Shown here: in pieces, positions 1 to 49,094 of the stretch
Layout: each line of letters begins with the position of its first letter
How positions within the stretch are numbered: position 1 is the first letter of the stretch
NCBI RefSeq assembly: GCF_964194025.1
Contig: NC_134473.1
Location: forward strand, 5,332,001 to 5,396,000
Length of the DNA: 64,000 bases
Direction: 5' to 3'
Source of the DNA: Convolutriloba macropyga
Taxonomy: Eukaryota
Position numbers and translations under genes: made by a program
Notes under the pieces: generated by a model
What the model was told of the DNA's origin: nothing
What the model saw: only the letters and a program-made list of their open reading frames with translations
The model's database searches: none

Positions 1-1363
1 AACATTGAACGATTTCCGGTTAACATGTATCCGGCCAATCTATTGTTTTCGTTAGACAATGCATTGATCATTTGGATTTGAGTGCGTCTGAGCTCGCACA
101 TATTTTGTAAAATAAGGAAGTCAGACTGTTCCAAATCACGATAGACCTTATACATCATGAAATTAATTTTCATACGCATATGAGCATCATAATCGATAGT
201 GTCTTTTCCAACGTTTTCAAGAATTTTTTTATGATTTCCAAAATGTTGACTACCAACTAGCTCGTTTTTAGGTGTCTCGTAAAAACCGTTCACCCTTATT
301 TTGTTGTCGGTGCCGACCTGCATTTTGTAATAATGAACACTATTTTTCGAAATTACGGTTTTTCCCGAATTCATATCAAATCCGCCTGTGAAGGAAACAA
401 ATAAATCATCAAAGTTTGTAATAAACAAAGGAGTAGGCTTTCCACAAATATAAGTTCTTTCATTATTTATCCTCAGTTTTATGTCTCGCGTGTGGTCTAT
501 TTTCATGTTGTTTTGCAAACGATAAACATCATTTTGCATGTCGTGCGTACTTATGATGTAGTATTGTGGTGGATCTGGTTCGTTCGTGAACTTTATCAGT
601 TTTGCGACTTGAGTGAAAAGTTTTGTAACAATGCAATTTTCTGGCACATCCCATGAGTAAGCGAAGGGGTCTAGTGATGTTGTTTCACAACCTCCTTCCT
701 TGAGTTCGCATGGAAGTTTTAATCCTAATGGGGTAAAAACTGATTTTGTTTCCTGATCAACTTCGAGTTCAACTCTTTGCATTTGTGTTTCAAAGGAATA
801 AAGTTTTACTTCTCCTGACGCAGAGCAATCTGTGTTATCTTCTAAGTGGTCGTCCTCATTCAGACCACCGTGTGTGTATTGGTGTTTTAAAACTTCATTT
901 GAAATGTCTAGCTTATAAGTTCTATCGTACTCTGTTATTGCAATTTTTCCTGTTTTGTTTGCACGTCTGCATTCTTCTGGCGTTACTATGACGTCAGTTG
1001 TAAGAGAAATTTGGTCATATGCTAATGAAGAGTGCGATAAAAATCCACAGTGACATCTTAAAGCTTGCGATTTTACTCGACACATCACTGCTTCTACGTT
1101 TGTTCTGTATGATCTTTGATACAGTGTCACCGTTGCAGGTGCAACTTTAATATTTTCCGGTTTAATGTTGCATTGAGCTACTTGATTTAAAGCATACATT
1201 TTGCTTTCTTTCATTTTTGAACAGTTATAATGAACAACTTTTAAACTTGTAACGTAGGGGAGATGTCATCCAACTCATTTCTAACTGAGGGTCTACAAAA
1301 AGATACAACAGTAAAGACAAACAAAACAGTTAAATATTTATAAAGGAAGTTATTGTTTATCAT
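1..1363 (-). pseudogene. env: env-like glycoprotein (chuvirus-like class III fusion protein), 3'-partial; one frameshift near 1262-1270 separates the signal peptide from the ectodomain
   Basis: Manual translation: ATG 1363 gives MINNNFLYKYLTVLFVFTVVSFCRPS (hydrophobic signal). A second frame is open from ~1266 to base 1 (~420 aa): HYNCS..ALNQVAQC..MCRVK..RCHCGFLSH..TPEECR..LPCELKEGGC..YSWDVPENC..ICGK..QNMCELRR..LAGYMLTGNR. Absent from the ORF track because no stop lies inside the window. Confidence 0.85.
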
Positions 1364-1512: not shown

Positions 1513-4500
1513 TTAAGTAAATCCCGCTTGATAGCGAGTAGTAAGTTTTTTCAATCGTCCCGAAATTCGACGATCGATTCGAGATGAACGTTGATCATCC
1601 GAGGGAGTTGGGTTTGCTTCGGGTGATTGTACACGGGTTTGGTTTCTAACAGGGCTGACTCTAATGTCAGGTGGATCTGCAAAACGAATACGTGTTTCAG
1701 GATATGGGGTAGAACTTCTAGTCCTACTACGACTACGGTTATCAGGTGTTTGTGTGTTATCTACAAACGTAGTTGAAAAACCTTCTTGAAATCCTGAATC
1801 AGGTTTTGTTATTGTGGTATTGTTATCTTCAAATGTTTTTTCATGATTATTTTCATTTTGTATGTTATCCTTATTACTTGTAAAATTGTCTACTGGGAAA
1901 AATTCAGTTTCAGTATAGGGTTGTTGAAAGGAAAATTTATCCACTGGCTTATTAAGTTTTTCAACTTGTTTATTCATTAAATTTTTGTAGAATGGTTGGA
2001 AGTTTTCATTCCTTAAACCATAGTCAACAACTAATTCTGAAATTGCGTTTTCGATTGGGAAGTACTCAATTAGATGGTTTCTATGGGCAACTTTTTTGAC
2101 AGTTTTGTTTGAAACAAGTTCTATTTCGTAATTTACATTTGTCAATTTTTTTGTTACTTCATACGGTCCTGATCTTATTTCTTATTTCATGTAACTTTTT
2201 GGATTTTCCGTCCTCGAATGAGTGGTTTTCCATTAACACTAGTTGTCCTACGTCTAAAGGCTTACCTAGTTTATGTTTGTTTCTGTTTTGATGTGCCTTA
2301 GAGTTAACTTCTAGGCTTCTGTTGTATGCAGTTTTGTAAATTTGATGGAATTGATTTTCACGAGCAAGCAATGAACTACTTAGTTTTGGTTTTAGTAGTT
2401 TATCTATTTGATCGTTGTAGCTACTTTGTTCTGAATGCTTGTGGAGTGGTAAATCTTTGCAAAATTCTGAATTACAAGTTAAATCGGAAGACCTTAATAA
2501 TCCTGATTTCAGAGAAAAGGGAATTTGGGGCTTTTGGCCAAAAACGATTTCGTAGGGTGTTAATCCTGTACTAGTGTTTGCTGTTGTGTTATGAGCAAAC
2601 GCGAACTTTGGTGCTAAGTCACTCCAATTACGATTAGCTTGTTCAAAAAAGATTCGGAAATGTGTGCCAAGATGTTTGTTTTGGATCTCAACTTTTCCGT
2701 TGGTCCAGGGAGAGTATGCTGTTCTAGGAGCATGCGTAATTCCAAGTTCATGAGTCCAACTTGTGAACTCCTCGTTCATAAAGGCTGATCCTTTATCATA
2801 CACAAGTTTTTGTGGTATACCAAAAGTAAGAAAAAATTTCTCAAGTGCTGATATTGTTTCACTTGCTGATGTTGATGAAACTGGGTAAACGTGGATGTAA
2901 CGAGAAAAGGAATCAATTAATACTAAGCAATGTTTATTTCCGTTCGATGGTGGATTTATTGGACCTTTGTGATCTATATGTACCGTGTGGAAGGGGAAAG
3001 GTACAGTTTCTGTCCATTTTTCAAGTGGTGCTTCGTTTAAGTCTTTGCGTTTTTGTTTATTTTTTTGACAGTCTAAACAATTCGCTATTAAGTGAGAAAC
3101 CCATTTATATAAACCTGGCCAATAGAAAAAGCGTTTTATGCTTGACAATGTTTTATCTTTTCCAGAGTGTCCAGAAAGCGAATCTTGATGAGCTAATTCA
3201 AAAATTTTTAAGAAGAGGGATAATGGTGCGCATATTTTGATGTTTTGAATATTTGGATCTTCAGTTGGTTGTTTAATACATAAAATGTTTCCAATTAGGC
3301 AAAGATTTTCGAAATTATTCAAGTACGTTTTCATGGCTTTTGATTGTCGGAATTTTACATTTTTCTCATCTTTGTTTCCTGATTCAAAAAGTTGTCTTAC
3401 AGTCTGAATGACTGGGTCTTTGAATTGTTCCTGGCTTATTGCTGTTATGTTCAAGTCAATATCTTTAGCAAAACTAGATAATTTCTCAATGAGTTCTTTT
3501 CCATCTGAAAATTCGTTATTTTCACAAATTGGTTTTGCTAGTCGAATACTTGCTATTCTATCAAAGTTTGCTTTGCTTGCTTCAATCTCTTGCTCAAGAC
3601 TCATGTCATCTATTTCTAAATCTGACAATTCAACAGAATTTAGCAAAGGGTCGTCTTCTGTTGTAGAAATTTTTTCAAAATGCTCTTTTTCTTTTTCTAA
3701 ATTATCATCAAACTCTAAAGACAAGTCAGAGTAGTAGTTTTCACTGTCGTCTTGTTCGCTTAGGATTGGCTCTTTTAGTGGGAACTTTCCACGATAGTGA
3801 TTTATTGCATTTCCTTTCAAGAAGGATTCTGATATGTCCGAAGTTGAACAAATTCGATCACTGGGTTTATAGTTTGTCTGAAAAAATTGTTCATTTTCAA
3901 AATTCAATTTTTGAACACCTTGAAAAGTTTGCTTTAGAATGGGGTAGCAATCGTTTTTCTGTCCTTTTTCATTGTCATGCAACACGAAGTATTTTTCTTC
4001 GTTGCCTGACTCGTCATAAAATTTAATGTCTTTCGGGATTTTTTTGTGCTTCAGTTGATACTTGTCTAAGTCCTTTATCGAGACGTTTCTACTAAGAATG
4101 TCTGGAAAGGCTAGGTTTTTGCCTTCTGTCCAGATTATTTTCAAGTTTTGAAATTGTGAAATGACAAGTTGATAGCGGAAAAATCGATGAGATAATTTTC
4201 CTTTGCGTCCCCAAAGATACAGTAGGGGCTTGTGGTCTGTGTAGAGATACACTGGATGTGGGGAACCTATTATGTAATGCTCATATGTTTGTAGAGCAGA
4301 AATTACACCACACAGTTCTCTGGCTGTTGTACTCATTTTTTGCTCATCTTTTGTGTAAATTCGAGAATTAAACGAAACTATCCGTTTTCCGGTAGGAAAT
4401 TCTTGGACTAAAATTGAACCAACACCAATTGATGATGCATCTACAGGAACATGGAAGGGGTATCTGGTGTCAGGAATTGCTAAGACTGTATCTTCACCTA

Positions 4501-6609
4501 TACGATCCTTAATTTCTCTGAACACCTTTTCGTTTTCATCTGTCCATTGAAATGTGGTTTCAGTTTTTATGAGATCGTAAAATGGCTTACTGTCTACATG
4601 CAGATTTTTTATGTACATGCTGTAAAATCCTAAACAACCTAGGACTCGCATTACATCTCGCTTATTCTCAGGTGTCTTTAAGGCTTTCAGATCTTCAACC
4701 TTTTTTTACTGGTTGAATTCCGTCTTTTCCTACTACGTGTCCTAAGAATTGTACTTTGCGCAAAAAGAATTTCGTTTTCTCAGGCTGAGCTTTCAGTCCT
4801 GCTTTGCGTAGCAAGAGGTGGTACTTTTTTATTATTGAGTACATCTCTTCAGCTGTCTGAGCTTGCATGATTGTGTCATCAATATACGTTACGGCTTGTC
4901 TAGATTTTATTAAAGGTGCAAAGTGGATTGTCATTATCCTACTGAAAAAGTTTGGTAGTCCGCAAAGTCCGTAAAAACCACGTTGAAACGTTTATTGTTT
5001 TGAACCTATTACGAAACTCGTCAATTGTTGTGTTTCCTCCGTCAGAGGGACTTGATTATATGCAGAACATAAATCACTTGTAGTGAAGTAGTTTCCGTTT
5101 AGTCTAGTCAATAAAGAACCTATGGGCTCTAGAGGCCATGAATACTTACTTAGGTCTGTTATTGAATTTAGATATCTAGCGTCTATTACTAGTTTCACTA
5201 TGTTTCCCTTTGGAAGGATGATAACAGGATTAATAAATGACGATCCCGTTTCAGTGTCGTCTCCCATTTCTCGAATTATTCCTGTTTTACAAAGCTGATC
5301 TAGCAAAATTTCAAGTTTTTCCTGATGGTGCAATGGCACTCGTGATGGTCTTTGCTTAGTCAATGTTGAATTTGGTAGAAGTTTTACGTGAAATTTTTGC
5401 TTTATTTTGCCAACGTCATACTTGTGCTGAGAGTAGACGTCCTTGTCTCTGGCAAGAAGTTTCATGAGATCTAGTAATTGTGCATCATTAATGTCAGATT
5501 GACTGAAGTCAAATTTTTTGAGAAACTCACGGTCTGATTTACTAAACATTTCCAATTTTTCTGGTGGTATTTGTTGTGGTCGAATTTCACCTTCTATTGT
5601 TGCTTTTGGTTTTAAGTCTTTTAGATCTTGACTAAAATCTGTTTCTAATTCATTGTGGTCTGCAAATTCTTTTTCTTGAACCTTTTTCTGAGCTTTTTTC
5701 AACTTTTGTCTAATATCTGTTTTGTCTAATTTCGGATTTTCTAAAGTCTGAATTGGGTTTTCAACTTTTTCAGTCACATGAAAGATGTGATTGAAATCTG
5801 TTTCAGTTTCTGTTAAGACATCTAAGAACGCGACGTTATCAATCAGTGTGTACTTTTGTGTTTTTTTTACAAATTTCTTCCAAGGTGTATCCTATTGAAC
5901 CTTTATCTATTGTTACTTTACGATCACCAGGGTTATTAAGCATTATTGGCAACTCTTTTTCTTTTCTAACACAATAGACGTTGTATGTGTAAATACCTTT
6001 GTCCTGGAGTCGATTGTCAATTATAAATGATGTTCCTTGTTTGAAAAATTGGTTTGATGGTGTAATTGTTAGTACTCTGCTAGATTTCGGTGCTAGTTCG
6101 AAAGGTCTGTTAAGTACAACTTTTTCAAATTTACTTACAAAAGGATAACTTTTTGTTTGATATTTTGAGAGCGTGATTGAGACGTTTGGATAAATTTTTA
6201 AGTTCATTTTTGGAGTTGTGAACTCAATTGATTTTGTTGCAAAAATCAAAAAGTCCATTCCTAGGATGTTTAATTCGCAACCGTTTTTCTCTGAAACCCA
6301 TGTTTTGAGATCTGAGTAATATTTGCCTTCAATGTCAAATGAAATGGGGACATGAATGTAGCCTAACAATTTTAATCGTTCACCGTTGACTGCAATTGTT
6401 TTTTGTTTTGACTCAATTAGTTTAACATCAATCAGTGACTTAAGTTCTTGTAGAAAATCAAAGTTTATTAAGGAACACGTTGCTCCTGTGTCAACTAGAA
6501 ACTGCAATTCGAAACCGTTATGTTTATTACTGTCTCCAACGGCGTGAATGTACAAGTTAATAAAAATGTTTGTCTTTTTATTTTTGTACGGAGACTCGTC
6601 TAGTTTAAA
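1513..6609 (-). pseudogene. pol: pol polyprotein (aspartic protease, RT, RNase H, integrase with GPY module and long C-terminal tail), disrupted
   Basis: FLVDTGAT protease; YIDD RT; VDASS/RELC/YTDHKPL/PDILSR RNase H; H..H..CLDC and HID/YDKG/NGKVE integrase. Lesions: frameshift in A-run ~5861-5868, in-frame TAA 4992-4994, frameshift in A-run ~4701-4707, 7-bp duplication 2174-2187. Confidence 0.95.
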
Positions 6610-7885
6610 TTAATTTCATCTTGTTGATTGTCCACAAAGAATCCATTAACTTTATTTTCTCTGAATTGAACTCCGTTTGAGTTACGGTCTCTACTGTTAT
6701 CTCTAGAATTCTGATTAGAACTGTTACTTCTTCTATAATCCTGTCTTGGACTGCTTGACTCACGATACCTTGTTCGGGAATCGTTTCGATCATATTGTCG
6801 TTCCCTGGAATAGTTCCTATAGTCCTGGGGTCTACGATCGTTGGATCTGCTATTATAGCGTCGATCTCGATTCTCAAAGCTTTGTGAGCGATTTCTGAAG
6901 TTCTCAGATCTAGGATGGGGAGAGTATTGTCTGCGGTTGTCTTGGTTGTAGTAACTGTTACGTGGTCTAGTGTCTTGTCTGTATCTGTTCTGATTTATAT
7001 CATAACTATCTTTTCTTGGACGACGTCCTCTATAGCTTTGATAGTTATCTCTGAACTTATCTCTTTGCTGTGGTTCCTGTCTGTTTTGTTCTTTAAAGTC
7101 TCTGTTTGCATAGCAATATGCTATTGTGTGACCTGACTTTCTGCAAAATTTACAAAATCGTGTGTGATCTTGTTTATTTCTAGGCTCGTTTGGGTTGTAG
7201 GCTGCGCTAATTCTGTGGTTTTTCATTAAACTTGCTAATTCTTAGAGCTGGTCTTTTATACCATCTATCTCCATTTTGTTGTCTATGCTGCTAGATGCTG
7301 TGCCTGTGAAATCACTACTTACTGCAAAACTTAAGTCTTTAGTGCTAACTTGATTTCTAAGTTGTTCCCATGTTGCGTTAGGTGTTTCTATCAAATATTG
7401 ATGCGCTTTTTGTTTAAGTGCTGGAGGAGTTAGTCCTCTTACAAAAAATTCCATACACTTAGTTTGCCTTTGAGCATCTGTGAATGGGTCTGGCCATCCC
7501 TTTTCCACTGCTTTTGTTAGTCTGTGTACGTAACTTTTGATTAATTCATCTGGTTGTCTACGAATGTTTTCTACCTCAATTCGTTTTCTATACTTGTCTT
7601 TCTCGTCTGTGAATCTATTTAGGAAACCTGTCCTAACATCATCCCATGGTTCCGCTGCGGGCAAAGAATCGAACCATTGGGCTGCTGGTCCTCTTAAGAC
7701 TGAGCCAAATAATGCTTTTCTACGTGCGTCATATGCATTTTGTGCATCTCCTTGTCCTGGTCTAATTCCTAATGAAAACTCTATTTTTCTCTCTATTAGA
7801 CTTAGAAAATCTGCTACGTCCTCACTTGGGTTAAGCCTGTAAACTTTTCCAGAGAAATGTCTGGGTATGCTACGATGTTAGCCAT
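6600..7885 (-). pseudogene. gag: gag (capsid domain, CCHC knuckle, RS-rich tail), disrupted
   Basis: ATG 7885 MANIVAYPDISLEKFTG; frameshift ~7830; LRGPAAQWF..W..FLNRF capsid motif; in-frame TAA at 7242-7244; CKFCRKSGHTIAYC knuckle. Confidence 0.9.
6603..6609 (-). promoter_or_regulatory. -1 programmed ribosomal frameshift slippery site U UUA AAC at the gag/pol junction
   Basis: gag ends AAT TTA AAC TAG; the heptamer is in X XXY YYZ phase and the -1 frame runs open (LDESPYKNKK..LYIHAVG) into the protease ORF. Confidence 0.8.
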
Positions 7886-8043
7886 TTTTGTTTTAGGGTT
7901 TTTGTTGAATTATTACTAAGTTTTTATCTGAAAAAGATACTATAAACGAAAGAAGCAATATAAAAGTCTAATCAAAAGAATTTGAAGCTATGAAAAGGTC
8001 AAACAATTTTTTATAGAATTTAGAAAATATTCAGACAATTTGC

Positions 8044-8289
8044 TTAAACAAATGGTCCTATCTCAAAAACACTATTTGGGGTACGAAGTGCGTCTAAAAT
8101 ATGGTTAAACTTTGGGTTGTTTTCCGCATGTGTTATGTAACAAGCTAGTCCTGGAATGTTATCAAAATTAATGAAAATGTACATATATTGCTTTTTCTTA
8201 TCTAATTTATAACTAGTAACCTTGCCTGTATTATGACCAAGTTTGATAATAATATTCAAGAAGTTAGCGTCAATATTCATTGAATTCAA
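8044..8289 (-). CDS. possible small accessory ORF in the 5' leader of the gypsy element
   Basis: 81-aa sense-strand ORF between LTR and gag; no recognisable domain. Confidence 0.3.
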   Translation of the reverse strand: MNSMNIDANFLNIIIKLGHNTGKVTSYKLDKKKQYMYIFINFDNIPGLACYITHAENNPKFNHILDALRTPNSVFEIGPFV

Positions 8290-8736
8290 CTTTTGCTCTA
8301 AAAAAGGTGTAATTTTAGACAGTATTAGTTACAAAATTAGGTAAAATTTTAGTGAAGTAGAGTTCAATATAACTATTGGGCGTGAATTTCACCACTTGAA
8401 CATATTGAATTTGTACTTTATAAGTTTTATCTTTGAAAGTTTATTGTCACTTGTTTCAATCCAATATTGAACCTCTTAATAACTAGTACACTTTGTACGC
8501 ACCTTTGCATTTTTTGTGTTGTTGTGCAATATGTAAACTGCAAGTTTGCTTAAAATTTTATACCTAATAACCCTCATCAGTATCTCAAAGTTGTAACCTT
8601 TTAACGCGTTTTTTATTTAATATGTTGCTTTTTAATTTGCAACTTTTTGTAAAAACTATTATTGTTTCTTTAATAATCTTAATGAAAACTTTGTACGATA
8701 GAGCACAATTTTTCTCTTCTTTAAACCGGGGTGAGC

Positions 8737-10097
8737 TGTAGTATTGCTAATATGGTAAAATGTCCAGTTCTGGTAAGTCTTTAATGATCAGTCAGACCAC
8801 CTTGCGCTTTTACTAGAGAATTTCAGCACTGGTTTAATTCAATTTTGATCATTTGCTAAGGACCAGTGCTCAAAATAAGCCGATTGCAATGGTGTATACT
8901 AAAAACACCCGTGAAATACCATTTGATAAAAGTGAACATCACGAGCATGTCAAGTTCTTAAGTTCGGCTTAATTTTAAATGTTTCAAATAATCAAAACTT
9001 TTCGTTGTTGCAGAAAAAAGTTTATTTCATAAACAATTGTCACAGTTAAAAAAGAGTTTGAATCGTAAATTTCTATCGATGCTTTTTCTTGAACGCTTTT
9101 AACTGAAAGCTGTCAAATATCGAAAACCATATTTTCAGCCGAGAGATAGCGCCCATAGATTTATTTTTAACTCTGATGTGGTAGGTATTTTATTCGCTTG
9201 ATCTTAATTACCACACTAGAGCTAAACCTATTCTATTGTAGCGACCTTAATTACGTGCTAGAATAAGTCTCACTATATGCTCACAATGTTCTTTGCTAAT
9301 TTCCAAATCTATGTGTTATTTGCTAGAAAATAAAATTGATTAGATACAAAGATTAATTAGTGAATAGACAGAAAGGATAGAGCACAATTAGGGGGTAAAT
9401 CTTACTTGAAAATATGGTGGGATATCTAATCTTAATCAATAAATTGAATCCATCTTACTGCTGGATGTGAACATTACTCTAACTCTAATTTTGCTATAAA
9501 ATTGGCAGACTTACAATCGCTGCTGATATTTCCCTCTTAGCTGAGGAGTAGATATTTCGCTCTAACAGCAGTGAGAGGAAGAGAGAGAGAGAAATTTTTT
9601 GGTTGAAACTCAAGCGTCTTACGTTCGCGCTGGTTGAGTTTGGTCTGATTTCCTTCAGCAGCAAGCTCTAAGCTCGTGCGTGTTTATAACTGAGTCAACA
9701 CGACTAAAAAATCACAAGACTTATGACTAGCTCCGAATCAATTCCTAGGTCATTCGTGGAGCCGACTATTACTCGTCTTTAGTCATATATTCGTTTCAGG
9801 CTTGCTGCTGAAGAACGGCCTGGATAGCTTCAGTATCCTTCACTTAGTACGCGTATTAATAACGGCAGTGAATCAGCCGGTATGGCCTGCTCCATAGTGT
9901 ATTAAATAATACACAGCAGTATTTGGCTATGAATAATGTATTCATTCACTCAACGCAATTTACGCAGCATAGCTCTCTCTAGAATATTCCGTCAGTTTAG
10001 ACTAAGTCTAAAGTGTTCACGAAGTCGACGGTTAAATAATTATACTCTCTGTAGTATCAATAATTGCGGCGGCAATTATCCAATTAGCAATACTACA
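8737..10097 (-). repeat. 5' LTR of the gypsy element (contains a 339-bp foreign segment at 8826-9164)
   Basis: TG...CA ends with a perfect 15-bp terminal inverted repeat TGTAGTATTGCTAAT (8737-8751) / ATTAGCAATACTACA (10083-10097). Right boundary agrees with the empty-site copy at 12301-12312. TATA-like TTATAAA on minus near 9683-9689. Confidence 0.7.
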
Positions 10098-13000
10098 TTA
10101 TAAGCTAGATATCAAAACCACTGATTATTCATTTTAAGTCAAGTTTTCTGGCGGTAAAAAACTAATCCAGCTGCAAAGTTTACATTCTTGCAACCCCAGA
10201 AAAAATTTCATTTAGCTTTAAAAAAATGTCAGAATAAAAATTTAAATTGAAGAAGTCACAATCGATTTTGATCAAAATTTGCATAAAATTTATCAGGTAC
10301 CTTCTCGGGCCTAAGAACTTCAAGAAAAAAACAGATTTTTCAAAAAATCAGCCAACAAACAACCCAATAATCCGCTGAGAATTGCTGAAATATATAAAAT
10401 CAGTTGAATTTCAAAAACTTTCAGCGCGTTTGAGTCCGATCAGTATTTACTGTATATTGTTCGCACCTAGTGACAGCCTCAAATCTCTCTATCCAGTCTT
10501 TTAGCCATCGCTTCTTCCACTACGCCATTAATTCCTCAGATTCCTAACAACTAAATTGATTTGATGTTAATAAACTATTTTGGAAGAAATGAGCTAAAGT
10601 TTCCTAAATGCAATAAAAATTTAGATCATTTTTTACTCAGTCTCAGTGCGTTTTATCGCATTACCATCTACGATTGTTGAAGTTGATATTATGAAATTAA
10701 AGCAATTTTGTTCATATTTTCCGCTAACATTATGCGCTGAAATCGCGCTGATACCTCAAACCAGTTTGCATCTAGTCTGAGACAAGAAAACAAAGTTTAG
10801 CACTGATTGCTGCTCAAAACTCAAAAAATTAACGTTGAAGTTTCAAATTGTAGCCCAAAATAGTTTGCACCATGCATCAGTGTTTCCTATGTGACTCATT
10901 AATGAGGCAAGGACCCTTTTCATTGACTCATTTAAGTAAGCTAATTTTTGCTAAAATCTTTATTTGTCAAGTAGCGCCCGATATCATGGCTGCAATTCCA
11001 CATATGTTTAACCAAAAATATATTTTTGATTGAAATTTCATGTTAGGCTTCGAATCGGCTTTGTTCGGTATATTAACGCTCAAAATGTTAATGTTTTGAC
11101 AAAATCTTCTAGGTTTTGGCTTGCACAAGCAAAAATGATTGACTTCAAATAAGATCGCAAAGTAACATCTTATGACATTTTAATTACGAATAGCTTCAGT
11201 TTAAATAGCTGCCAGTAAGCAAAATATTTAAGCAATCCTCTGCGTTGACCTTTAAAATCAGAACAATAGAATTCAAAAATGAATGAAATTGCTAATGTAG
11301 TCATATCCCATTAAAAATTAGTGCTGTTGCTCTGTCTGTATTACTGCTTCCAATACAGCTCCAAAGAACAATTTGTAAAAAAGATCAAACAAAAAGCAAA
11401 ATAAACCTACTTCTCATGTCATAAAACTTGAACCATTATTCTGCTATCACATTGAAAGTAACTCACCAAGAGGCAATAATTATATTTGTTCATCTTTGAA
11501 GTATTATCTAAGAAAGAGCTAACTACAAAGCAATTCGAAGGTCTAATGAGACGTGAAAAAGCAAAGCTCGACATCCACTAAGGCTTTTCTTTGTCCAAAA
11601 TTGTTGATGATTTTTGATTTGCTGACCAAAGGAGCGTACATATTGATTGATTAGCATTCTGATTTTCAATTATTGTCTTAAAATTGAAAACAAACTCCGC
11701 AGATAGCCGGATAATAGCCGCCGTTGATTCCCGTTACGATCGGGATTGAATGAAGAGAAAAAATGAGAAAAAAATGTCTTTTTTTGTACAAAAACATCAT
11801 TAAAGTGCTAACTATTTTGATGTCATTTCGCAGTTGAACATGATTTTGTTTCGTAGAGAGATGATACACGGGCTAGTATCAACACAAATAAGCATCAGAG
11901 ATGGTAACTAAGACCGTTTCTATTTCTGATTTCGTTTTTTGATACTGACTCTGTTCATTTTGAATTGCACTGGTTTAATTCAATTTTGATCATTTGCTAA
12001 GGACCAGTGCTCAAAATTAGCCGATTGCAATGGTGTATACTAAAAACACCCGTGAAATACCATTTGATAAAAGTGAACATCACGAGCATGTCAAGTTCCT
12101 AAGTTCGGCTTAATTTTAAATGTTTTAAATAATCAAAACTTTTCGTTGTTGCAGAAAAATGTTTATTTCATAAACAATTGTCACAGTTAAAAAAGAGTTT
12201 GAATCGTAAATTTCTATCGATGCTTTTTCTTGAACGCTTTTAACTGAAAGCTGTCAAATATCGAAAACCATATTTTCAGCCGAGAGATAGCGCCCATAGA
12301 TTTATAAGCTAGATATCAAAACCACTGATTATTCATTTTAAGTCAAGTTTTCTGGCGGTAAAAAACTAATCCAGCTGCAAAGTTTACATTCTTGCAACCC
12401 CAGAAAAAATTAAGTTCTCGTTCTTGACCTAATTCTTGTTAATCAGCCGGCAAGCTTAAATTTCTGATGAAGTATTGCTTTTTCTGTTGAGACCGACAGA
12501 AATTTGGTTTGAACTCATAACTTTTGAAACTGTTTGTCCGTATTTTATCCTGATTCAATTATATTTAACTTTCTATATATAAGGTTAACACTGTGTTGTA
12601 TCGACCAGATTAGCTTTAAAAAAATGTCAGAATAAAAATTTAAATTGAAGAAGTCACTATCGGTTGCGATCAAAATTTGCATAAAAACTATTTGGTACCC
12701 TCTCGGGCCTAGGAAGTTAAAGAAAAATGCAGATTTTTCAAAAATTCAACACACAAACAAACTAATAATCCGCTGAGAATTGCTCAAATATAAAAAATCC
12801 GTTGAATTTCAAAAACTTTCAGCGCGTTTGAGCCGTTCAGTGTCTACTGTATACTGTTCTCACCTAGTAGCAGTCTCAAATCTCTCTATCCAGTCTTTTA
12901 GCCATCGCTTCTTCCACTACGCCATTAATTCCTGACTCCTAACAACTAATTTGATTTGATGTTAATAAACTATTTTGGAAGAAATGAGCTGAAGTTTCCT

Positions 13001-14366
13001 AAATGCAATAAAAATTTAGATCATTTCTTACTCAGTCTCAGTGCGTTTTATCGCATTACCATCTACGATTGTTGAAGTTGATTTTATGAAATTAAAGCAA
13101 TTTTGTTCATATTTTCCGCTAACAATATGCGCTGAAATCGCGCTGATACCTCAAACCAGTTTGCATCTAGTCTGAGACAAGAAAACAAAGTTTAGCACTG
13201 ATTGCTGCTCAAAACTCAAAAAATTAACGTTGAAGTTTCAAATTGTAGCCCAAAATAGTTTGCACCATGCATCAGTGTTTCCTATGTGACTCATTAATGA
13301 GGCAAGGACCCTTTTCATTGACTCATTTAAGTAAGCTAATTTTTGCTAAAATCTTTATTTGTCAAGTAGCGCCCGATATCATGGCTGCAATTCCACATAT
13401 GTTTAACCAAAAATATATTTTTGATTGAAATTTCATGTTAGGCTTCGAATCGGCTTTGTTCGGTATATTAACGCTCAAAATGTTAATGTTTTGACAAAAT
13501 CTTCTAGGTTTTGGCTTGCACAAGCAAAAATGATTGACTTCAAATAAGATCGCAAAGTAACATCTTCTGACATTTTAATTACGAATAGCTTCAGTTTAAA
13601 TAGCTGCCAGTAAGCAAAATATTTAAGCAATCCTCTGCGTTGAACTTTAAAATCAGAAAAATAGAATTCAAAAATGAATGAAATTGCTAATGTAGTCATA
13701 TCCCATTAAAAATTAGTGCTATTGCTCTGTCTGTATTACTGCTTCCAATACAGCTCCAAAGAACAATTTGTAAAAAAGATCAAACAAAAAGCAAAATAAA
13801 CCTACTTCTCATGTCATAAAACTTGAACCATTATTCTGCTATCACATTGAAAGTAACTCACCAAGAGGCAATAATTATATTTGTTCATCTTTGAAGTATT
13901 ATCTAAGAAAGAGCTAACTACAAAGCAATTCGAAGGTCTAATGAGACGTCAAAGCTCGACATCCACTAAGGCTTTTCTTTGTCCAAAATTGTTGATGATT
14001 TTTGATTTGCTGACCAAAGGAGCGTACATATTGATTGATTAGCATTCTGATTTTCAATTAATGTCTTAAAATTGAAAACAAACTCGGATAATAGGATAAA
14101 CTCAGATTGCCGGATAATAGCCGCCGTTGATTCCCGTTACGATCGGGATTGAAAGAAGAGAAAAAAATGAGAAAAAAATGTCTGTACAAAAACATCATTA
14201 AAGTGCGAACTATTTTGATGTCATTTCGCAGTTGCACATACTTTTGTTTCGTAGAGAGATGATACACGGGCTAGTATCAACACAAATAAGCATCAGAGAT
14301 GGTAACTAAGACCGTTTCTATTTCTGATTCCGTTTTTTGATACTGACTCTGTTCATTTTGAATTGC
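8826..14366. repeat. ~2.2-2.4 kb tandem duplication (copy 1: 8826-9164 + 10098-11966; copy 2: 11967-14366)
   Basis: Near-identical text in both copies; copy 1 lacks ~200 bp present at ~12411-12609 and is interrupted by LTR sequence. Confidence 0.9.
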
Positions 14367-16186: not shown

Positions 16187-17091
16187 TTAGACCTTCTTAA
16201 TAATCTGAATCACATCTTCATCATGCAATAAATGATCTTTCCCACAGTTCTGTGGCGTGTGCTTAGCTGATGTACCCCAAACTAAGGCGTATTTGAATTC
16301 CTTAATTATAGTTTTGTGGATTTTGTTGCAGAAATCTTCAATGGAACATGCCTCGCTTCTGAGAACCACAGGAGCACTGTAGTCGGGCAACTGGCCCTTG
16401 GGTTTCGTGTATATCCTAATCAAGTCCAGGTAATCCCAGATCTTTTCCAGAAGGTCGTCAAAGTTCCACTTATTATGTGCAGATATAGGCACGCAGTGGG
16501 GGATCTTGTAAATAATGTCCAATTCCTGAATTGATATTTGATCGATTTTGTTCAGCACATAAATACACGGGATGTAGATTCGGTTGGCCTCGATGACGTC
16601 AATGAAATCATCTTCGGTTGCGTCGCATTTAAATGTGACATCGGCATTGTGAATCTTGTACTCTGACAGTATAGCTTTGACCGTTTCTTGATCAAGATGA
16701 GTTAACGTTACTGTGGCGTTGAAATTAATTCCTCCTTTTTCTTTCTTCTTGAAATATATACTCGGCGGTTTCTTATTTAACCGAATTCCAAAACCTTCCA
16801 ACTCATGTTCTATTATCTGCTTATGTCCAAGAGGTTTTAGAACGTCCAGAACTATCAATATTAAGTTGCAGGTTCTTGCAACTGCGATTACCTGTTTTCC
16901 TCGACCTTTTCCGTCTTTGGCTCCTTCGATGATTCCAGGGAGGTCCAGAAGTTGTATTTTGGCACCTTTGAATCTGATCACGCCTGGGACTGTGGTGAGG
17001 GTTGTGAATTCATAAGCTGCCACTTCGGAGTACACGCCAGCTAGGTTCGTCAGAAGGGTTGATTTACCAACTGAAGGAAATCCGACGAATC
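16187..17091 (-). CDS. DRG1: developmentally regulated GTP-binding protein 1, exon 2 of 2
   Basis: Acceptor TTGCTTCAG|GA; GFPSVGKS (G1), YEFTT (G2), DLPG (G3), NKID (G4), TGS domain; spliced CDS 1101 nt = 366 aa. Confidence 0.97.
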
Positions 17092-17339
17092 CTGAAGCAA
17101 AATTCCTAAATCTTTACTGAATGGCATAAATTGACCAGTTGAAATATATGATTTGATATATTTTGGAGAACTTTTTGGCTTTCAATTTGACTTTTAGTCT
17201 CAAATTTCAGTTTAGTTTTGAAATCTTTATGCAATTATTCTTCATGGAAAATGTTTGACCGTAGTAAATTTGGTAATCGAGGGCAAAATACGTTTAAACT
17301 AGAACCAGTGTCGACTACCATGGACCAAGTAAAAATATT

Positions 17340-24000: not shown

Positions 24001-24572
24001 AGGACATTCAAAAAGCCTACAACTATTTTTGTACAAAATGTTCCAAAATACCACCAAACGTCAAATTATGGCCCAGTTGTGCCTCTATTTTGTCTCAAAA
24101 TAAAAAAAAATGCGGGTTTTCACTTCAAAAAATTCCAAAGCTAATTGAGTAGTTGCCATGTCGCCAGAGCTCACAAGAAAGTAAAAATGTTCACAATATG
24201 CTCAAAACTGATTGTACTTCAGTTTTTAGCAAAGGCTGCCACTTACAAATTATCAATGATTATGTCATCTAGCTTCAACGAAATTCTACGAAGGCAAGTA
24301 GGAATAAATGCGAGTAAAAAGTCAAGACAGAAGGTAATATTTTTCAAATAAAGCAAAGCAGGTGACGAGCTGATAGAAAATTAAACAAAGCTCAACGTTT
24401 TTGTTCACAAAGTATGCATTAAAACGAGTTTATTTTAACACGTGCATCTAAATGATACTGAACGCAAAAAAGCACCAAAATAAAAACCACCAATCTTATT
24501 TTTACGTTTCATTCGAACTGTTTGCTTGCTACAGCAGTGATCACCAATTCCAGCAAAAACCGTGTAAATAAA

Positions 24573-25775
24573 ATGGCCGTGCCTTATTCAAACACAAAGC
24601 TAAGACCTCCGCGAGGTTTTCAGAACCTTCTAGAAGGATTGGCACGCGAAGTTCTCAGAAATCAACCAGCAGATATCCCTTCATTTGCCGCACAGTACTT
24701 CGCCGACCTCCTACAACGCCGAGAGGAAGGCGGGTACGATCCGGAGGGCTTCCTAGATCCTGCTAACTTGGGTGCCAAGCATGAAGATCGGTACTATAAC
24801 TACGACAAAAAAGAGGCCTTAAGACAACCCGACCTATCAAAATCCCCAACGCCGCCTTCTGAGGGCAGGCCAAAGTCCAGACCTATGAGCTCGAAGCTGT
24901 CACGAGCACCTCCCGCAGAACCGGCGGAGCAAGAAACAGAAGTTTCACAGGAAGCAGAGCCTTCTGCCGAAGAACAAGCACCCGAAGTCACTGTGGAGCC
25001 GGAAGCAGAACCCGAAACAGCTCCTGAAGTTGAGGCACCTCAAGTAGAAGAGCAAGTCCATGCAGAAAGTGCTCCTCAAGAAACGGAACAAGAAGCTCCA
25101 CCTGTCGTAGACGATGCAGAACCAACTAGCACCGAAGCTGAACAAGAACCCGAACAGACAACAGCTGAAGAGGATTCACCGGCAGACGCTCCTGACGATG
25201 TGGAACAAAACCAGGAGCCAGCACCTCAGCAAGAAGAACAAGAGCCGGAACAAACCGAAGTTGCCGAGGACCCAAGCGAGGCTGCAGAACCAGACGAGGG
25301 TGTCGAGACTGGTCGAACTGAAGAGGAACCCCCTGTTGAAGACGAAACGCAGGATGAACAACCCGTAGAGGAAACACCAGCCGATGAAGAGCAAACTACG
25401 GAGGGCGAGGCTGAACAAACAGCAGAGCCAGAAACTGCTGAAGAACAAGTTAACGAAGCTGAGAACGTCGATCAAGAGCCCGCAGCTGATGGCGACCCAG
25501 AGGCTGAAACCGAAGCCGAGCCAGTAGCAGAACCAGAGCAGACAGCATTACCCGATGAGCCAACCGAAGGCGAAGCACCGGAAGAACCAGCCACTGAAAC
25601 TCAGGAAGAACAACCCGGCCCTGCAGAAGAACCGGCGGCTGAGGAACAACCAGCTGACAAAACCGCAGCCAATGAGGAAACAGAACCAGCACCTTCAGGT
25701 GAAGTTGAACAACCCGAAGATAACGAAGCACCTGCAGCTGAAGGCGATGTTGAACAGACAGAAAATGAGGCTTAA
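24573..25775 (+). CDS. SPA17: sperm surface protein Sp17-like: N-terminal RIIa dimerisation/docking domain plus long Glu/Pro/Ala-rich disordered tail
   Basis: MAVPYSNTKLRPPRGFQNLLEGLAREVLRNQPADIPSFAAQYF and EDRYYN match the Sp17 N-terminus; ATG in AAAATGG context; single open frame. Confidence 0.8.
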   Translation: MAVPYSNTKLRPPRGFQNLLEGLAREVLRNQPADIPSFAAQYFADLLQRREEGGYDPEGFLDPANLGAKHEDRYYNYDKKEALRQPDLSKSPTPPSEGRPKSRPMSSKLSRAPPAEPAEQETEVSQEAEPSAEEQAPEVTVEPEAEPETAPEVEAPQVEEQVHAESAPQETEQEAPPVVDDAEPTSTEAEQEPEQTTAEEDSPADAPDDVEQNQEPAPQQEEQEPEQTEVAEDPSEAAEPDEGVETGRTEEEPPVEDETQDEQPVEETPADEEQTTEGEAEQTAEPETAEEQVNEAENVDQEPAADGDPEAETEAEPVAEPEQTALPDEPTEGEAPEEPATETQEEQPGPAEEPAAEEQPADKTAANEETEPAPSGEVEQPEDNEAPAAEGDVEQTENEA

Positions 25776-35300: not shown

Positions 35301-35604
35301 CACCCAGCAGAAAATGATTGAAGCACGGGGTCTTAGAAAAACGAGTCATTTTGAATTATTGAAAATATTCGGCGCATATTTAAAGTGCCGAAATGATTTA
35401 ATTTGCACAACAGCTACATTAATTAGCCGAACTTACAAAATTTATTTCCATATTAACATACTGTTTTAGTAATCTGAGGGAAGCATTAATAGAACAAAAC
35501 GCCTCCATTCTCCGTTAAACCACAATATTATTACCCCCTCAGATACAAAAACTAACATTAAAAAAAGAAACGTCTTTCATTCAAAATTACCAAAATTTTT
35601 GTAT

Positions 35605-36900
35605 ATGACTATTTTAGAAATGTTTAATAGTACAACCACGCTTGACACCGACAGCTTGATCGAAAATATTGGCCCAGCTGCAATGGATCTTCTAACAGGT
35701 GCTCTTGGGCTTTTTGGTTTGGGGTTGACCCTCTGGAGCTACAAAAGGGTCTGTCGTTTACGAGAACAACTAATGTCAAAAAGGATCCTAAAATTTATAC
35801 TTCTTCACGACAGTGTTGGTTTGACTTTCAATGGAGTTACATACAGCGCTCTAAAACTCGGAGGAATTCATCTCGCAAATTACCAGTCGACTTATGTCAA
35901 GGTATTTCAGATCCTTGCTTCGGGAAGCGTTCTCGTATCGTTGCTTAATCTTGCATTGACCGCTTTCGATCGCACACTCAAAGCAATTCGACCCGCAGTC
36001 CATCGAACTGCGTCAAACAAGCGCTGGGTGCAAACTGCGTTATTTGCAGCTCCGTTTATAGGATACCTTCTGATAATCCCAGGAGTAAAGTTTTGCAATT
36101 TTTACCAAAACGATTGCAGATTGAATTTACTGAGCTCAGAATTTCAATTTTTGTTGCCTTTCTCAATTAACGTTGTTTATTTTGGATTTGCTTTATTCGT
36201 CATGACTGTTTGCAATTCGGTTGTATTGTTCAAAAGCACTTTTCTGAGAAGCAAACGGCAGCAGAGAAATAAAAGAGTAATCGAAATGTCGTCGAGAAGT
36301 CACTCCAAGTCACAACAAAATTCATGTGCCCGAAGCGTCAATATCCCGTGTGACACAAGAATTTATAAACTAAACAAACAAAGCCCATGTCGCAGAAATT
36401 CCGATTCCGATCGTTTCAAAAGTACAAATACTGTAAAGTATTTAAACAATTATGACTTCAAACCTAGAACTGACGGACCATATGAGATCAGCACTCGCAA
36501 GACATCAAGACAAAGCGCTGCAGAATTGGATTGGGACAACATGAAAGACCATTTTGAGAACATCGGACAACTGAATTTTTCGATAAAACGGCAGCGGAAG
36601 CAAAACTTGCCAAGTCATGATGTGAAAATGGTCGGCAACGGTACCCCGAACAAACCAAACATTCTCAGACTCTTAATTATTTTCAACACATCGTACACGA
36701 TTCTTGTGTTTACTATCAGTTATATTAGCAATCAAGGTTTCAAAAAAGAAGGCGATGAGAACGGGTACGAGTTTGCATTGTCATTCATGCAATTTGCAAC
36801 AGTTGTGAATCAAATGTTGACTACTCTGTTCCTATATATGTCCAATCAAGAATTTCGACAAAATTTGACACCGAAAAACCGTTCGTCAGTTGAAGCTTGA
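35605..36900 (+). CDS. orphan rhodopsin-like (class A) GPCR, intronless, long third intracellular loop
   Basis: Seven hydrophobic segments, TM2 L..HD, TM3 LALTAFDRT (DRY-like) followed by AIRP, ECL2 cysteines, TM7/H8 FLYMSNQEFRQ, N-terminal NST sequon. Confidence 0.8.
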   Translation: MTILEMFNSTTTLDTDSLIENIGPAAMDLLTGALGLFGLGLTLWSYKRVCRLREQLMSKRILKFILLHDSVGLTFNGVTYSALKLGGIHLANYQSTYVKVFQILASGSVLVSLLNLALTAFDRTLKAIRPAVHRTASNKRWVQTALFAAPFIGYLLIIPGVKFCNFYQNDCRLNLLSSEFQFLLPFSINVVYFGFALFVMTVCNSVVLFKSTFLRSKRQQRNKRVIEMSSRSHSKSQQNSCARSVNIPCDTRIYKLNKQSPCRRNSDSDRFKSTNTVKYLNNYDFKPRTDGPYEISTRKTSRQSAAELDWDNMKDHFENIGQLNFSIKRQRKQNLPSHDVKMVGNGTPNKPNILRLLIIFNTSYTILVFTISYISNQGFKKEGDENGYEFALSFMQFATVVNQMLTTLFLYMSNQEFRQNLTPKNRSSVEA

Positions 36901-37478: not shown

Positions 37479-38009
37479 CTACGCCGGAAACGGTCCTTTA
37501 GCTTGGTCTTGTTTAAAATTGTACTTTTTGAACAAGTACCAAACACGTTTATTCATCAATCTAACTTCTTTTGTACTCAGCTGCCCTTTTAAAGCCTTCC
37601 GTTTTGCCAAAACCCGCTTTAGTTCATTAGTGCCAGAATTTTTGACCCAGTACGGCGCGTTTATATTACGCCTCAAATCGTACTCCTGATCTGATAAAAC
37701 GTCGTAAAAATCTTTAGTTCCTTTATTTTTGCTTTCAGACGAAAACGGATCAACATCTTTTCGTTCTTCGTTCAGCTTCAAATCAATCGGAGGCTTCGTA
37801 TGATCTCTGATAGGTTCCGGGAGCTTCGTATAACGTCCGTCGGATCCGAAGCCGTGTTTAACTCTATACTCTTCGAGATCTCCGTGACGAAAGCCAAGCT
37901 GGCTTTTCCTCGAGAGAATTTGAGATGTAGATAAGCATCTCGTGGCCACGAACGAATTTAGAGCATTTAATGATTTCAAGCTGAGCATGATTTGATTAAA
38001 GATTCGCAT
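37479..38009 (-). CDS. MRPL51: mitochondrial large-subunit ribosomal protein mL51
   Basis: Basic/hydroxylated presequence (RCLSTS) then APYWVKNSGTNELKRVLAKRK..MNKRVWYLFKKYN, matching the mL51 pattern P.W....NEL.R...RK..NKR..YL.K..N; start could also be ATG 37988. Confidence 0.8.
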   Translation of the reverse strand: MRIFNQIMLSLKSLNALNSFVATRCLSTSQILSRKSQLGFRHGDLEEYRVKHGFGSDGRYTKLPEPIRDHTKPPIDLKLNEERKDVDPFSSESKNKGTKDFYDVLSDQEYDLRRNINAPYWVKNSGTNELKRVLAKRKALKGQLSTKEVRLMNKRVWYLFKKYNFKQDQAKGPFPA

Positions 38010-41000
38010 CAATCATTTCTGAAATCAAAAGTGATCCATGATTTTGAAGTTTCTCTGACCCTGTTTGTCAATTTGAAATCATATCTAGACTTTGTTCATA
38101 TGATTTGTTTGAAGATATCAAAGTGCCTTAAAAGACGGTCTGTTATAATAACAAATGAACAACTTACTGATTCGCTTTCGATGTTTTAACAGATCTTTGA
38201 ATAACATGATACCTAGAAGATCATCAATCCAGTTCTTCAATCATTCAAGCAAACATCACATCAAACATCACTTCGAAGATGTAAGATGAAATAACTAACT
38301 ATTGAAAACTTAATTGCTTTTAGTGTTGCAGCTTCCGTAAAATCTGTTCACGCCTAAAAGTTTGTGGCCCACAATAAAATCACACAAATTCGAGTTATTA
38401 TTTTGAGGAAAACAATTAATAAACATAACCCACCAACGCCGAGCGAATTGCTCTCAAACGACCAGCGAGCTGTTGGCTTTGGTAGTACCCAGCTTGGGAG
38501 AGATGCTAGCACGCGGAGTGAGCGGTGGTGGGGGGAGGGAGGCGGAGTTACGGGCGTGGGGGTCAAGCGATGAGGGGGTAGGGTTGCGCAGGCTGGACGA
38601 GAGGGGGGTTCTAAACCACCCGGTAGAGGAGTGTGGGGTGGACTGGGGGCGTGCTGGGGGTGAAGGGGTAAGTGGGAGGGGGTGACCTATGGGGGTCAAA
38701 ATTTTAAGAATAAGAAAAGCCCTTAACACCATGAAAAAAGACTGGTATAAGGCTCTAGGAGTCCTTAAGGCCTTCCGGGCGTTAACTGTTTATCCCGTTT
38801 TTGAGGACGAAAAGTCAAATGGATCAGACAAAAAACAGAGCAAGCGAAAACGACCACAGGACCAATATTGCTACAAACTTTGAGATCAATTAATAAAGTC
38901 AAATAATTAATCTAACGCCATTTCTGAAAATAATTATCCATTGCGCCGCATTTGGCTTCTTAAAACATTGCTGTATCTAACTAACCATTCATTAGATGTT
39001 AAGATCCAAAATAATCATCCTTTCTCGAAAATAAACAATTTTCAGTCAAACTCCAGAACACTTTAATGCTCCAATTAGAAGTTGCGTTGAAATCAAGCTG
39101 CATGTTGCTTTCAAATTCATTATATTTTGGTGATCAATTGATTCAAGAGTAGTTAACAAAAAAAATCCTTCGCTTTTGTTTTAAGCTACACGTTGAAATC
39201 CAGTGTGACCAAAATCACTCCGCAAATTTGACTTTTAAATGACGGCAAAATCATTTAATAGTCTGAGGAGTTCTTTAAAAACAAGACAGCCAACAACAAC
39301 CCAAAGTATATGAAATGAATAATATAAGAACTCAAAAAAACTACCTGAAATCATTAGACTGCACCTAACTACCAATGTTGCTTGTTGTTTTCAATGATTG
39401 ACACAAATATGAACAAAAATGAATTTCCATAGCGGCATAAAATGTAATTAATATCAAAAAATTCTCAAAAAATGGGATCTTTCAAACCTCAGTCTAACCT
39501 AAAGAAGCAAGCAATGCGAAATCAGTAGCTGTCGGTCGCTTTTCGGTCATTTCTGCTTGCAGGCCGTGCTGTCTCTAAATTATCACTTCTTAGTTTTACA
39601 GGTTCGATATGAAATATCTTGTGATTTTTCCCAAATTTTCTTGTGATATAAAATTTTCATGTGATTTTTCCCAAATTTTCATCATTAATTAACTAACTAT
39701 AGATAATCTCAAATGCTTTCCTTGTTACTCAAAACTTTATTAAAATTGTAAAACGAACTGAACAACGGGTTAAAGGACAGGCTAACACGGATAATAAAAG
39801 GGTTTAAAATTAATTAGAAGAGGCTAAAAATTGTAGAAAAACTCGAAAAACTCAAACATATAGTTGGTCAAAAATGGTTCCAAAACTTCCTCAAAAAAGA
39901 GAAATTCCAAACGCTTTGTTTGCAGAGAAATTCCAGAGGCAGGAGGTGTAGATTGCTACCACACAAGCTAGTCTGCAATTCCCTCAAAAAAATCAAAGTG
40001 GGGCTAGCATTGTTTCACATTTTGAAAAAACGTGGGAACAATGATTGTTTGAAAAAACTCTGACAAAATGACAAGTAGAGTTTGTTTTTGAATCTCAGAT
40101 GGTACTGCAGAATAAATGATTGCTTATTTTCTCTCACGGGATATGCACCAATGCAAAACCATTTTGGAGACAAAATCCCATTGTTTTAACTTGCGAAAGC
40201 CTTTGAAACTATTGTTATATTTAAAGCTCCCTTTGAAATAGTTTTCAATTACAGTTAAATCAATTTCATCAACCTCTTGCTTCGAAGAAAATATTAAAAT
40301 ATTAAATTTATAATGTTTGAAATGAGCAAAGGAGTCAGACATATCTTCAATCAGAAAGACTAAAAACTATCACAAATAGAGTCAAAGTTCTAAACGAGAC
40401 TATAGATTTGCATAATTTTGAAACAAAAAACGTCCTATTGAGCTGCAAACGTAACCTGTCTTGCTATGTCTCAAAAACAGCTTAAATTGGCTATTGTGTG
40501 GAATAAGACACAATTTTTCTAACAATTTGAGCAAAATTAACCAATAATCATTATAACAGGCACACGATAATCACTCATTATACAATTTATTCAGAAGAAA
40601 ACGCCTAACGAAACTTCGTTTTGTCAAATTATAAAAACTAGTGTAAGAAGAGTTAACTTAAGTACGAAGAAATTGTTCACACCCTTCATAATTTTACGTA
40701 ATTATAGCCGCAATAAATCCTTATTCAAAAAATTCAGCTTCTTTAGAAGCAGCAAAAACAACCGCAAACGCGAAAATGTGCAACAGTATCACAAAATGAA
40801 CAAAGTTTTAAAACCCTCTAACTGAATATATCTGTTCAAACGGCTTTCCAAAGATATCACTCATATAAATAATGCTACACAGGATCTACCAAAAGGCAAA
40901 AATGCATTGACCCTAAAGGGAGTCAGAACAAAAAACTATTTCAAACTCAAATTACAATTAACTACACAGAAGCTACTTTAGTTATTTATTCAGAAACACT

Positions 41001-49039: not shown

Positions 49040-49094
49040 TTTGTCTAAAAATTTATTGTTGATTGTAGTTAAACTTTAAATAAGACGGCCCCAT

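Follow-up and report, generated by a model that had tools for sequence, protein, structure and literature searches.

A damaged copy of a Ty3/gypsy family with a class III env gene and an array of small accessory ORFs

The window, a stretch of 64,000 nucleotides in a 1.18-Gb genome (G000:C6:5332001-5396000), contains at its left edge a copy of a Ty3/gypsy element, which reads on the minus strand in the order gag, pol and a third gene, env. The latter begins 150 bases beyond the pol stop and runs off the window edge (Table 1). Its ectodomain is encoded by a frame of 421 codons from 1265 to the edge, which stays open beyond it, across membrane anchor and tail, to G000:C6:5331019 (748 codons overall), carries the cysteine motifs HYNC, CRV, CGFLSH, CSASG, YSW..C, ICGKPT and CE, and matches Pfam family PF24664 with an E-value of 8.8e-15, far beyond chance. 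A first-pass annotation of the window had described a third ORF with a cysteine-patterned ectodomain after pol, and this is what we found; the motifs are those that it listed, two of them with slightly different spacing. It had further read signal peptide and ectodomain as a single ORF, which holds for the sister copies, where env is one uninterrupted ORF of 778 aa, but not for the window copy, whose env ATG (1363-1361) and hydrophobic leader stand in another frame than the ectodomain because of a frameshift near 1250. The polypurine-tract position and the 3' LTR lie downstream of env, beyond the window edge. As read from the frames, none of gag, pol and env is intact in the window copy, which is dead by itself; five small ORFs and ORF4 are open in it, as is a RING frame that lacks an ATG.

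Table 1. Features of the window copy and its surroundings (positions in the window unless a contig is given)
Feature	Position	Strand	Basis or remark
env, 5' part (class III fusion glycoprotein)	1..1363	-	frame reading, Pfam
3' part outside the window: five small ORFs, ATG-less RING frame, ORF4, 3' LTR	G000:C6:5326330-5330925		
3' LTR	G000:C6:5326330-5327262		beyond the window edge
pol	1513..6609	-	frameshifts near 5870, 4700 and 2180
pol domains, in order: protease, RT, RNase H, integrase with SH3-like C-terminal domain	protease ~6250-6520; RNase H ~4260-4550; integrase ~2700-3230	-	
gag-pol junction, TTTAAAC heptamer followed by the gag stop	6600..6609	-	identical in families A, B and C
gag	6600..7885	-	frameshift near 7830, stop near 7243
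3' remnant of the 5' leader	7886..8384	-	
duplicate of the DNA flanking the 3' LTR	8385..9164	.	includes an inverted bit of the element's 3' end, 8383-8758
LTR, 933 bp, TGTAG...GAGTTAAAA	9165..10097	-	99.7% identity to the 3' LTR
empty paralogue of the insertion site	11967..12411	.	self-comparison; right flank joined to left, single 4-bp target

At the 5' end the sisters have about 3 kb more leader than the window copy, and in this missing portion lie their primer-binding site and four small ORFs. The LTR found here is bordered on each side by an identical 4-bp target duplication, in the manner of a solo LTR, and next to it the duplicate of the 3' flank takes the place of primer site and leader. 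The stretch from S1 to the RING frame is 96 to 100% identical to two sisters and env 96 to 99%, whereas the ORF4 allele has only 58% identity to the same two. From the ORF4 allele and the duplicated flank we infer that the window copy is a mosaic of recombination origin and that the arrangement of 5' LTR and flank is a recombination-derived rearrangement; alternatively, haplotypes mixed in the assembly may account for the latter. For the empty site, a joint of 9160 to 10098 was seen in one sequencing run. The site itself is surrounded by a tandem segmental duplication (10212-11968 and 12610-14366, 95% identical). Farther into the window are five long unbroken host ORFs, which we take to resemble a DRG GTPase (16187-17113), an Sp17-like protein (24462-25775), a GPCR (35473-36900), a small basic protein (37479-38012) and a sulfotransferase (48200-49075). 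The host looks intron-poor locally and, by our reading of these neighbouring genes, is an animal-like eukaryote.

The copy belongs to a family, here called A, with many close members. Of 2399 candidates found with the window frame as query, 100 were scored, and at least 32 of these, the window copy included, match it along its full length at 91% identity or more. Env is present in the sister copies: among the 31 close sisters in that sample, 19 have a stop-free env frame of at least 766 codons, two of them on small contigs that may be haplotype duplicates. Both LTRs were found in seven of nine fetched sisters (eight of ten family A copies with the window copy). Six of the sisters are 18,117 to 18,140 bp long and one, whose leader is short, 15,526 bp; a 4-bp target duplication was read in six sisters and the window copy and was unclear in one. 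Gag, RT-to-integrase and env frames are open in six of the nine sisters, and pol has 1696 codons. The two LTRs of a sister are 98.9 to 100% identical, hence the insertions of family A are young. The LTRs of families A, B and C start with TGTA and end with TTAAAA or TGATA instead of CA. Two bases past the LTR all three families have a TGGTGCG site, absent from the window copy, which agrees with 7 bases of the tRNA-Gly end tabulated in PMC13524379; one pattern search found no better tRNA for it.

The assignment to Ty3/gypsy (Metaviridae), already made by the first-pass annotation, is by Pfam domains, the RT tree holding this genome's families only. Pol has the order protease-RT-RNase H-integrase, the element has two LTRs and a target-site duplication, and gag has a Ty3-type capsid region (Retrotrans_gag, E-value 4.5e-9, above the cut-off; Ty3_capsid, 0.0015, below it). 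BEL/Pao elements are defined by Pao-type protease and gag domains and a single gag-pol frame; none of the 11 Pfam matches to pol is to a Pao-type family, and gag and pol stand in separate frames here. By each feature tested in its sequence, the family is a member of the Ty3/gypsy group that carries a gB-type env, and we are virtually certain that a class III env sits on a gypsy element.

Profile and predicted fold agree on what Env is, namely a chuvirus-like protein in the broad sense and a class III fusogen. A sister Env (P0002) matches Monjiviricetes_fusion (PF24664) with an E-value of 2.3e-43, and this Pfam family is above the cut-off in all six env-bearing families of the genome, in B and C by way of their 49 to 50% identity to A. 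In the AlphaFold model (56-row alignment, mean pLDDT 64, pTM 0.33) a central helix of 48 residues is accompanied by long beta-hairpins and by helices at the C-terminus. All of the roughly 39 PDB entries listed by Foldseek for this model are herpesvirus gB (best E-value 8e-14, HSV-1 gB), while the sequence of Env found no match in the PDB. Among viral structures the G proteins of chu-, xinmo-, qin- and rhabdo-like viruses come first (best E-value 1.5e-29), with entomopoxvirus proteins and herpes gB (4.5e-17) lower. The TM-scores of the model, 0.12 to 0.27 overall and 0.14 to 0.19 against gB, are low owing to a poor or unreliable domain arrangement, so the assignment to class III rests on local fold and profile.

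The earlier proposal of a chuvirus-like class III env is therefore borne out by PF24664 and by the fold matches to gB and viral G: the best structural matches are class III and not class I. That the match is to chuviral G in particular holds only insofar as this protein is among the best, since chu-, xinmo-, qin- and rhabdo-like G score alike, at 14 to 16% identity to the best viral G. Env has a hydrophobic anchor at 642-672 by hydropathy, 5 sequons, 16 cysteines and a predicted N-terminal helix (5-22) at the leader, and anchor and helix together predict a type I membrane topology; the hydropathy cut-off for a signal peptide (19 residues) was passed in families B, D, E and F and failed in A and C. 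An F-type class I env as in insect errantiviruses was considered and rejected: there is no F match in Pfam, family A env has no furin site (R-x-K/R-R), and the predicted fold is class III. Toward the end of the cytoplasmic tail, seven of eight aligned env sequences share a Tyr-Pro-x-hydrophobic motif (A8 columns 1030-1076), and env of families A to C ends in APP; by analogy, these tail motifs are possibly a sorting or budding signal.

The five further env-bearing families, B to F, range in identity to family A from 86 down to 45% in RT and from 50 down to 20% in env. The env dN/dS is 0.18 between the two subtypes of A and 0.05 to 0.14 between families where measurable. Why does the family keep such a gene? 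From its sequence we consider spread by enveloped particles probable. Alternatively, the family may move inside cells only and use Env for a superinfection block, as a membrane scaffold or for local cell contact, with no infectious particle. A derivative of family C that lacks pol (L079/L080, G000:C13:3133592-3143319) shows that env can be copied passively: its LTRs are 99% identical and enclose leader, a gag fragment with a poly-A run at its end, env and all accessories, and it is likely a non-autonomous env carrier. The route outside Drosophila is, moreover, stated as open in the parts of PMC13524379 that we draw on. However, purifying selection has kept the full ectodomain, the cysteines, the anchor and the tail in six families. 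A passenger gene would have no such pattern, and we regard purely intracellular movement as unlikely.

The first-pass annotation saw in the element an independent capture of a chuvirus glycoprotein by a gypsy lineage, and as a relatively recent event this now seems quite improbable. In its favor are the Pfam family of Env, Monjiviricetes_fusion, and the viral fold matches, which are best for G of negative-strand RNA viruses (E-values of about 1e-29 versus 4.5e-17 for gB); a capture of this kind by BEL/Pao elements is argued in the available portion of PMC7642597. However, at 14 to 16% identity no one virus family stands out, and env diverges together with RT, down to 43 to 48% in RT and 20 to 25% in env within the genome. 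The RT and env trees of the six families agree, both being ((E,F),(D,(A,(B,C)))), although with only three inner branches, support of 93/94 for B and C in RT and a long branch for family E in env; a 30-row env tree was computed in quick mode. This concordance indicates an old association and not a fresh capture. Among the 120 database homologues of env listed, only 5 are at least 70% identical to the families of this genome; the other 115 are more distant, and several of these are in clusters of hundreds of members. An ancient origin is also argued in PMC13524379, as far as the part used here goes. No related locus was found in viral contigs (alignment A1) or in metagenome contigs (P0009).

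In families D, E and F, too, env has further ORFs around it, which weakly resemble the small families described below (best E-value 4e-5). A family D pol (L112:571-3012, G000:C5) has a Macro domain between protease and RT, with PF01661 just above the cut-off (E-value 1.3e-4). The gap between pol and env, 3 to 4 kb in D, contains antisense frames kept between two copies (L125:4534-5443 and L115:4673-5556), and E and F have similar gaps. Directly after env follow ORFs of 596 aa in E and 547 aa in F that match no family (L118:4936-6723 and L122:4428-6068). In one family C copy (L089:408-6262, G000:C6) the 3' three quarters of env are tandemly repeated twice more.

The unusual part of families A, B and C lies around env. 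In family A, env is followed by 2.4 kb tiled with small sense ORFs, then by ORF4 (315 to 323 aa) and the LTR, and the 3.3-kb leader contains four more small ORFs. Family B is 19.9 kb long with LTRs of 1.1 kb, family C 15.6 kb with LTRs of 0.8 kb; all three share the gene order and differ in the numbers of paralogues. The accessory ORFs of at least 60 codons, leaving aside one of 65 codons in A, number 11 in A, 15 in B and 11 in C by our count. Sense ORFs with an ATG cover 75% (A), 66% (B) and 83% (C) of the region from env to ORF4 and antisense ORFs 8 to 11%; in 200 shuffles each, coverage reached at most 34% and never the observed level. For the leader the coverage is 30 to 32% versus at most 19% in shuffles. 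Between the two A subtypes the five small ORFs pooled have a dN/dS of 0.12 over 408 codons (60.5 synonymous and 33.5 non-synonymous differences) and the four leader ORFs one of 0.19, within an overall range of 0.08 to 0.19 for the small ORFs. Families B and C are saturated at synonymous sites but still share 42% of the residues, and between families the third codon position is the least conserved (0.36 versus 0.52 and 0.69).

With these sequence data we are highly confident that the accessory ORFs are real genes. That they are chance frames or neutral captured cargo within long non-coding DNA is hardly credible, and chance is refuted by dN/dS, codon-position pattern and shuffles, by their collinearity in three families despite saturation, by their paralogy and by the confident barrel fold described next, even though Pfam is silent for 10 of the 11 tested and the only relatives of the barrels are near-identical ones.

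The accessory ORFs fall into four groups. The first consists of barrel paralogues of 75 to 94 aa, three to five per element, for which four strands and a helix are predicted with a pLDDT of 88.7. The model is weakly similar to the SH3-like domain I of EF-P/eIF5A (best Z 5.5 to 5.6, rmsd 2.6, 54 aligned residues), a Z within the tool's range for common arrangements that it does not rate as significant and that does not indicate function. An eIF5A mimic was rejected, as Z is below 6 and the hairpin lacks the conserved lysine. The barrel model had no viral structural match at an E-value below 0.001, and all 102 sequence matches were at least 59% identical to their queries. The leader family forms the second group. 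In profile-profile comparisons the 3' barrels match neither the leader family (prob 0.1) nor S0/T (prob 0.2), and the match of leader to S0/T is weak (prob 12.5, E-value 0.0023), so these comparisons do not make the small ORFs a single superfamily.

The third group comprises tandem-RING proteins, one to three per element, of which four of six start with Met-Gly. Five of the six match zf-C3HC4_3 (best E-value 7.4e-7), and their profiles match RNF4, TRIM32 and MDM2; the zinc ligands, eight invariant Cys/His per RING, occur twice, with variant spacing. For one family B paralogue, the 150 candidates scored out of 1001 include at least 60 full-length copies at 90% identity or more. When 1.84 billion representatives were searched by profile, 54 RING matches came up at an E-value of 0.001 or below, several of them full tandem-RING proteins only 30 to 45% identical to the queries. 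One of these, P0364, reaches at most 49% identity in this genome (150 places scored). The longest contig is 14,468 bases for a member of the P0364 cluster and likewise for a member of the P0009 cluster (env, 59% identical to family C), which hints at a linkage of env and RING in another organism. ORF4, the fourth group, begins with a Gln-rich part and contains a conserved core and, likely, a coiled coil. It is 31 to 37% identical between families and matches no known family, with 25 database matches, all unnamed, at 38 to 100% identity; atlas searches gave only low scores (at most 0.85) for ORF4 and a barrel protein.

The small ORFs are tightly packed. In A, B and C, 16 of 31 junctions have gaps of at most 25 bases, with three TAATG overlaps, and out-of-frame ATGs are rarer within the small ORFs than expected (62 versus 78 to 81; 1 and 3 of 500), a depletion not seen in env, pol, gag or ORF4. 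Packing and depletion fit scanning-dependent reinitiation, while a depletion of about 20% is too small for pure leaky scanning. The calicivirus-type reinitiation motif, TGGGA, occurs at 1 of the 31 junctions, and acceptor-like splice sites at 8. For the region from env to ORF4 no RNA record came up, and four runs, all contigs from a single study, speak neither for nor against splicing.

Taking the sequence evidence as a whole, we think it quite likely that the element in the window is a defective member of a Ty3/gypsy family that has multiplied recently and has a class III env, 11 selected accessory genes and likely enveloped spread between cells. TTTAAAC-type heptamers are -1 frameshift sites in gypsy and retrovirus biology, by which Gag-Pol would be made through -1 ribosomal frameshifting at this heptamer, and the TGGTGCG site would, as in gypsy, be where priming of reverse transcription takes place. 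Translation of a subgenomic RNA would give Env, whose trimers on budding particles would fuse with a recipient germline or stem cell. The accessory ORFs might be read off a few subgenomic RNAs, perhaps aided by stop-start reinitiation. From their motifs, the Met-Gly tandem-RING proteins might be membrane-anchored ubiquitin ligases and could, as a guess, mark host factors with ubiquitin at membranes; that the RINGs are active ligases and are myristoylated is likewise a guess. The fold of the small SH3-like barrels invites the guess that they act as binding adaptors or decoys against host restriction. A role of the accessory genes in countering host defence is conceivable, although we hold it with some reserve. 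Only tentatively would we go on to see here an infectious, complex, enveloped member of the Metaviridae of 16 to 20 kb in an invertebrate, with a class III fusogen, polycistronic and with myristoylated tandem-RING ligases and an expanding set of barrel decoys that counter defence and are swapped by recombination, present in other hosts too; equally tentatively, such an agent would have more accessory genes than the complex retroviruses examined.

How does this family relate to elements already described? Chary and Hayashi (eLife 2026, PMC13524379), in the portions of their paper used here, report gypsy elements with a chuvirus-like or gB-type env across animals, found the chuvirus-like glycoprotein of mosquito BEL/Pao also beside gypsy pol (114 elements in one search), and describe this env, as Chuviridae-like and gB-like, as widespread in many phyla and ancient. 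The pairing that the first-pass annotation took to be new is thus already in print. Our families resemble those gB-type errantiviruses in the order gag-pol-env, the Ty3/gypsy pol, the class III env with leader and anchor, the many near-identical copies and an env that follows pol in trees. An HSV/gB-type errantivirus is defined by a Ty3/gypsy pol with a gB env, intact and multicopy, and this describes the family, not the window copy. Going by their descriptions, the published elements differ from A, B and C, which are 15.6 to 19.9 kb long and have 11 to 15 accessory ORFs. The survey took in 3 kb beyond gag and env (in some phyla, 5 kb past pol) and discarded LTR pairs more than 14 kb apart, so that the LTRs of families A, B and C would have been missed. 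Its main text uses "accessory" 0 times and "additional ORF" twice, both times about env, and holds no such array; its supplements do not contain the env motifs of our families, though sequence files may lie outside them.

Other known systems share single traits with the family, as far as the available parts of the cited papers tell. Anakin, a mosquito BEL/Pao element (PMC7642597), has the same kind of class III glycoprotein inside its LTRs, but on a BEL/Pao backbone, unlike the Ty3/gypsy domains and separate gag and pol frames here. The foamy-like endogenous retroviruses of fish, AciFLERV and AliFLERV (PMC5512871), and complex retroviruses, which reach 17 kb (PMC6431247), also combine a large genome with paralogous accessory ORFs near env; however, these belong to the Retroviridae, and AciFLERV has 5 accessory ORFs of 234 to 465 aa, compared with 11 to 15 of mostly 75 to 145 aa, some of them upstream of gag, in our families. 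Burro, a giant gypsy element of planarians (PMC6431247), has env and extra functions, including RING and ubiquitin-related domains, but fused in one polyprotein and with an F-like env. Rotifer LTR elements with ORF3 (PMC5408684) combine env with extra functions in one or few extra ORFs, and the gypsy-like Tor of Oikopleura (PMC4402516) makes env via a spliced RNA or an internal promoter. The texts used describe no tiled array of small paralogous ORFs for Burro, rotifer or Tor elements, and we found no accessory-ORF array of this kind described in the open-licence literature.

The env result alone would add one more host to the published survey (PMC13524379). With the env pairing known, the gene-rich array of accessory ORFs is the unusual part: a gypsy lineage with 11 to 15 small genes under selection, duplications having altered their number from family to family. 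Accessory genes in such complexity are usually associated with retroviruses of vertebrates and with larger viruses, and the family resembles a complex retrovirus in its working, though it is not classified as one. LTR-finding cut-offs of 14 kb hide such elements, so more of them may be unrecognised. As a young multicopy family it also offers a natural case in which to ask if membrane fusion by a gB-type Env can do without helper glycoproteins, a point on gB-type retroelement Env that PMC13524379, in the part available, leaves open. The accessory proteins are candidate antagonists of invertebrate antiviral or transposon defence and, as such, may serve as probes for finding host defence.
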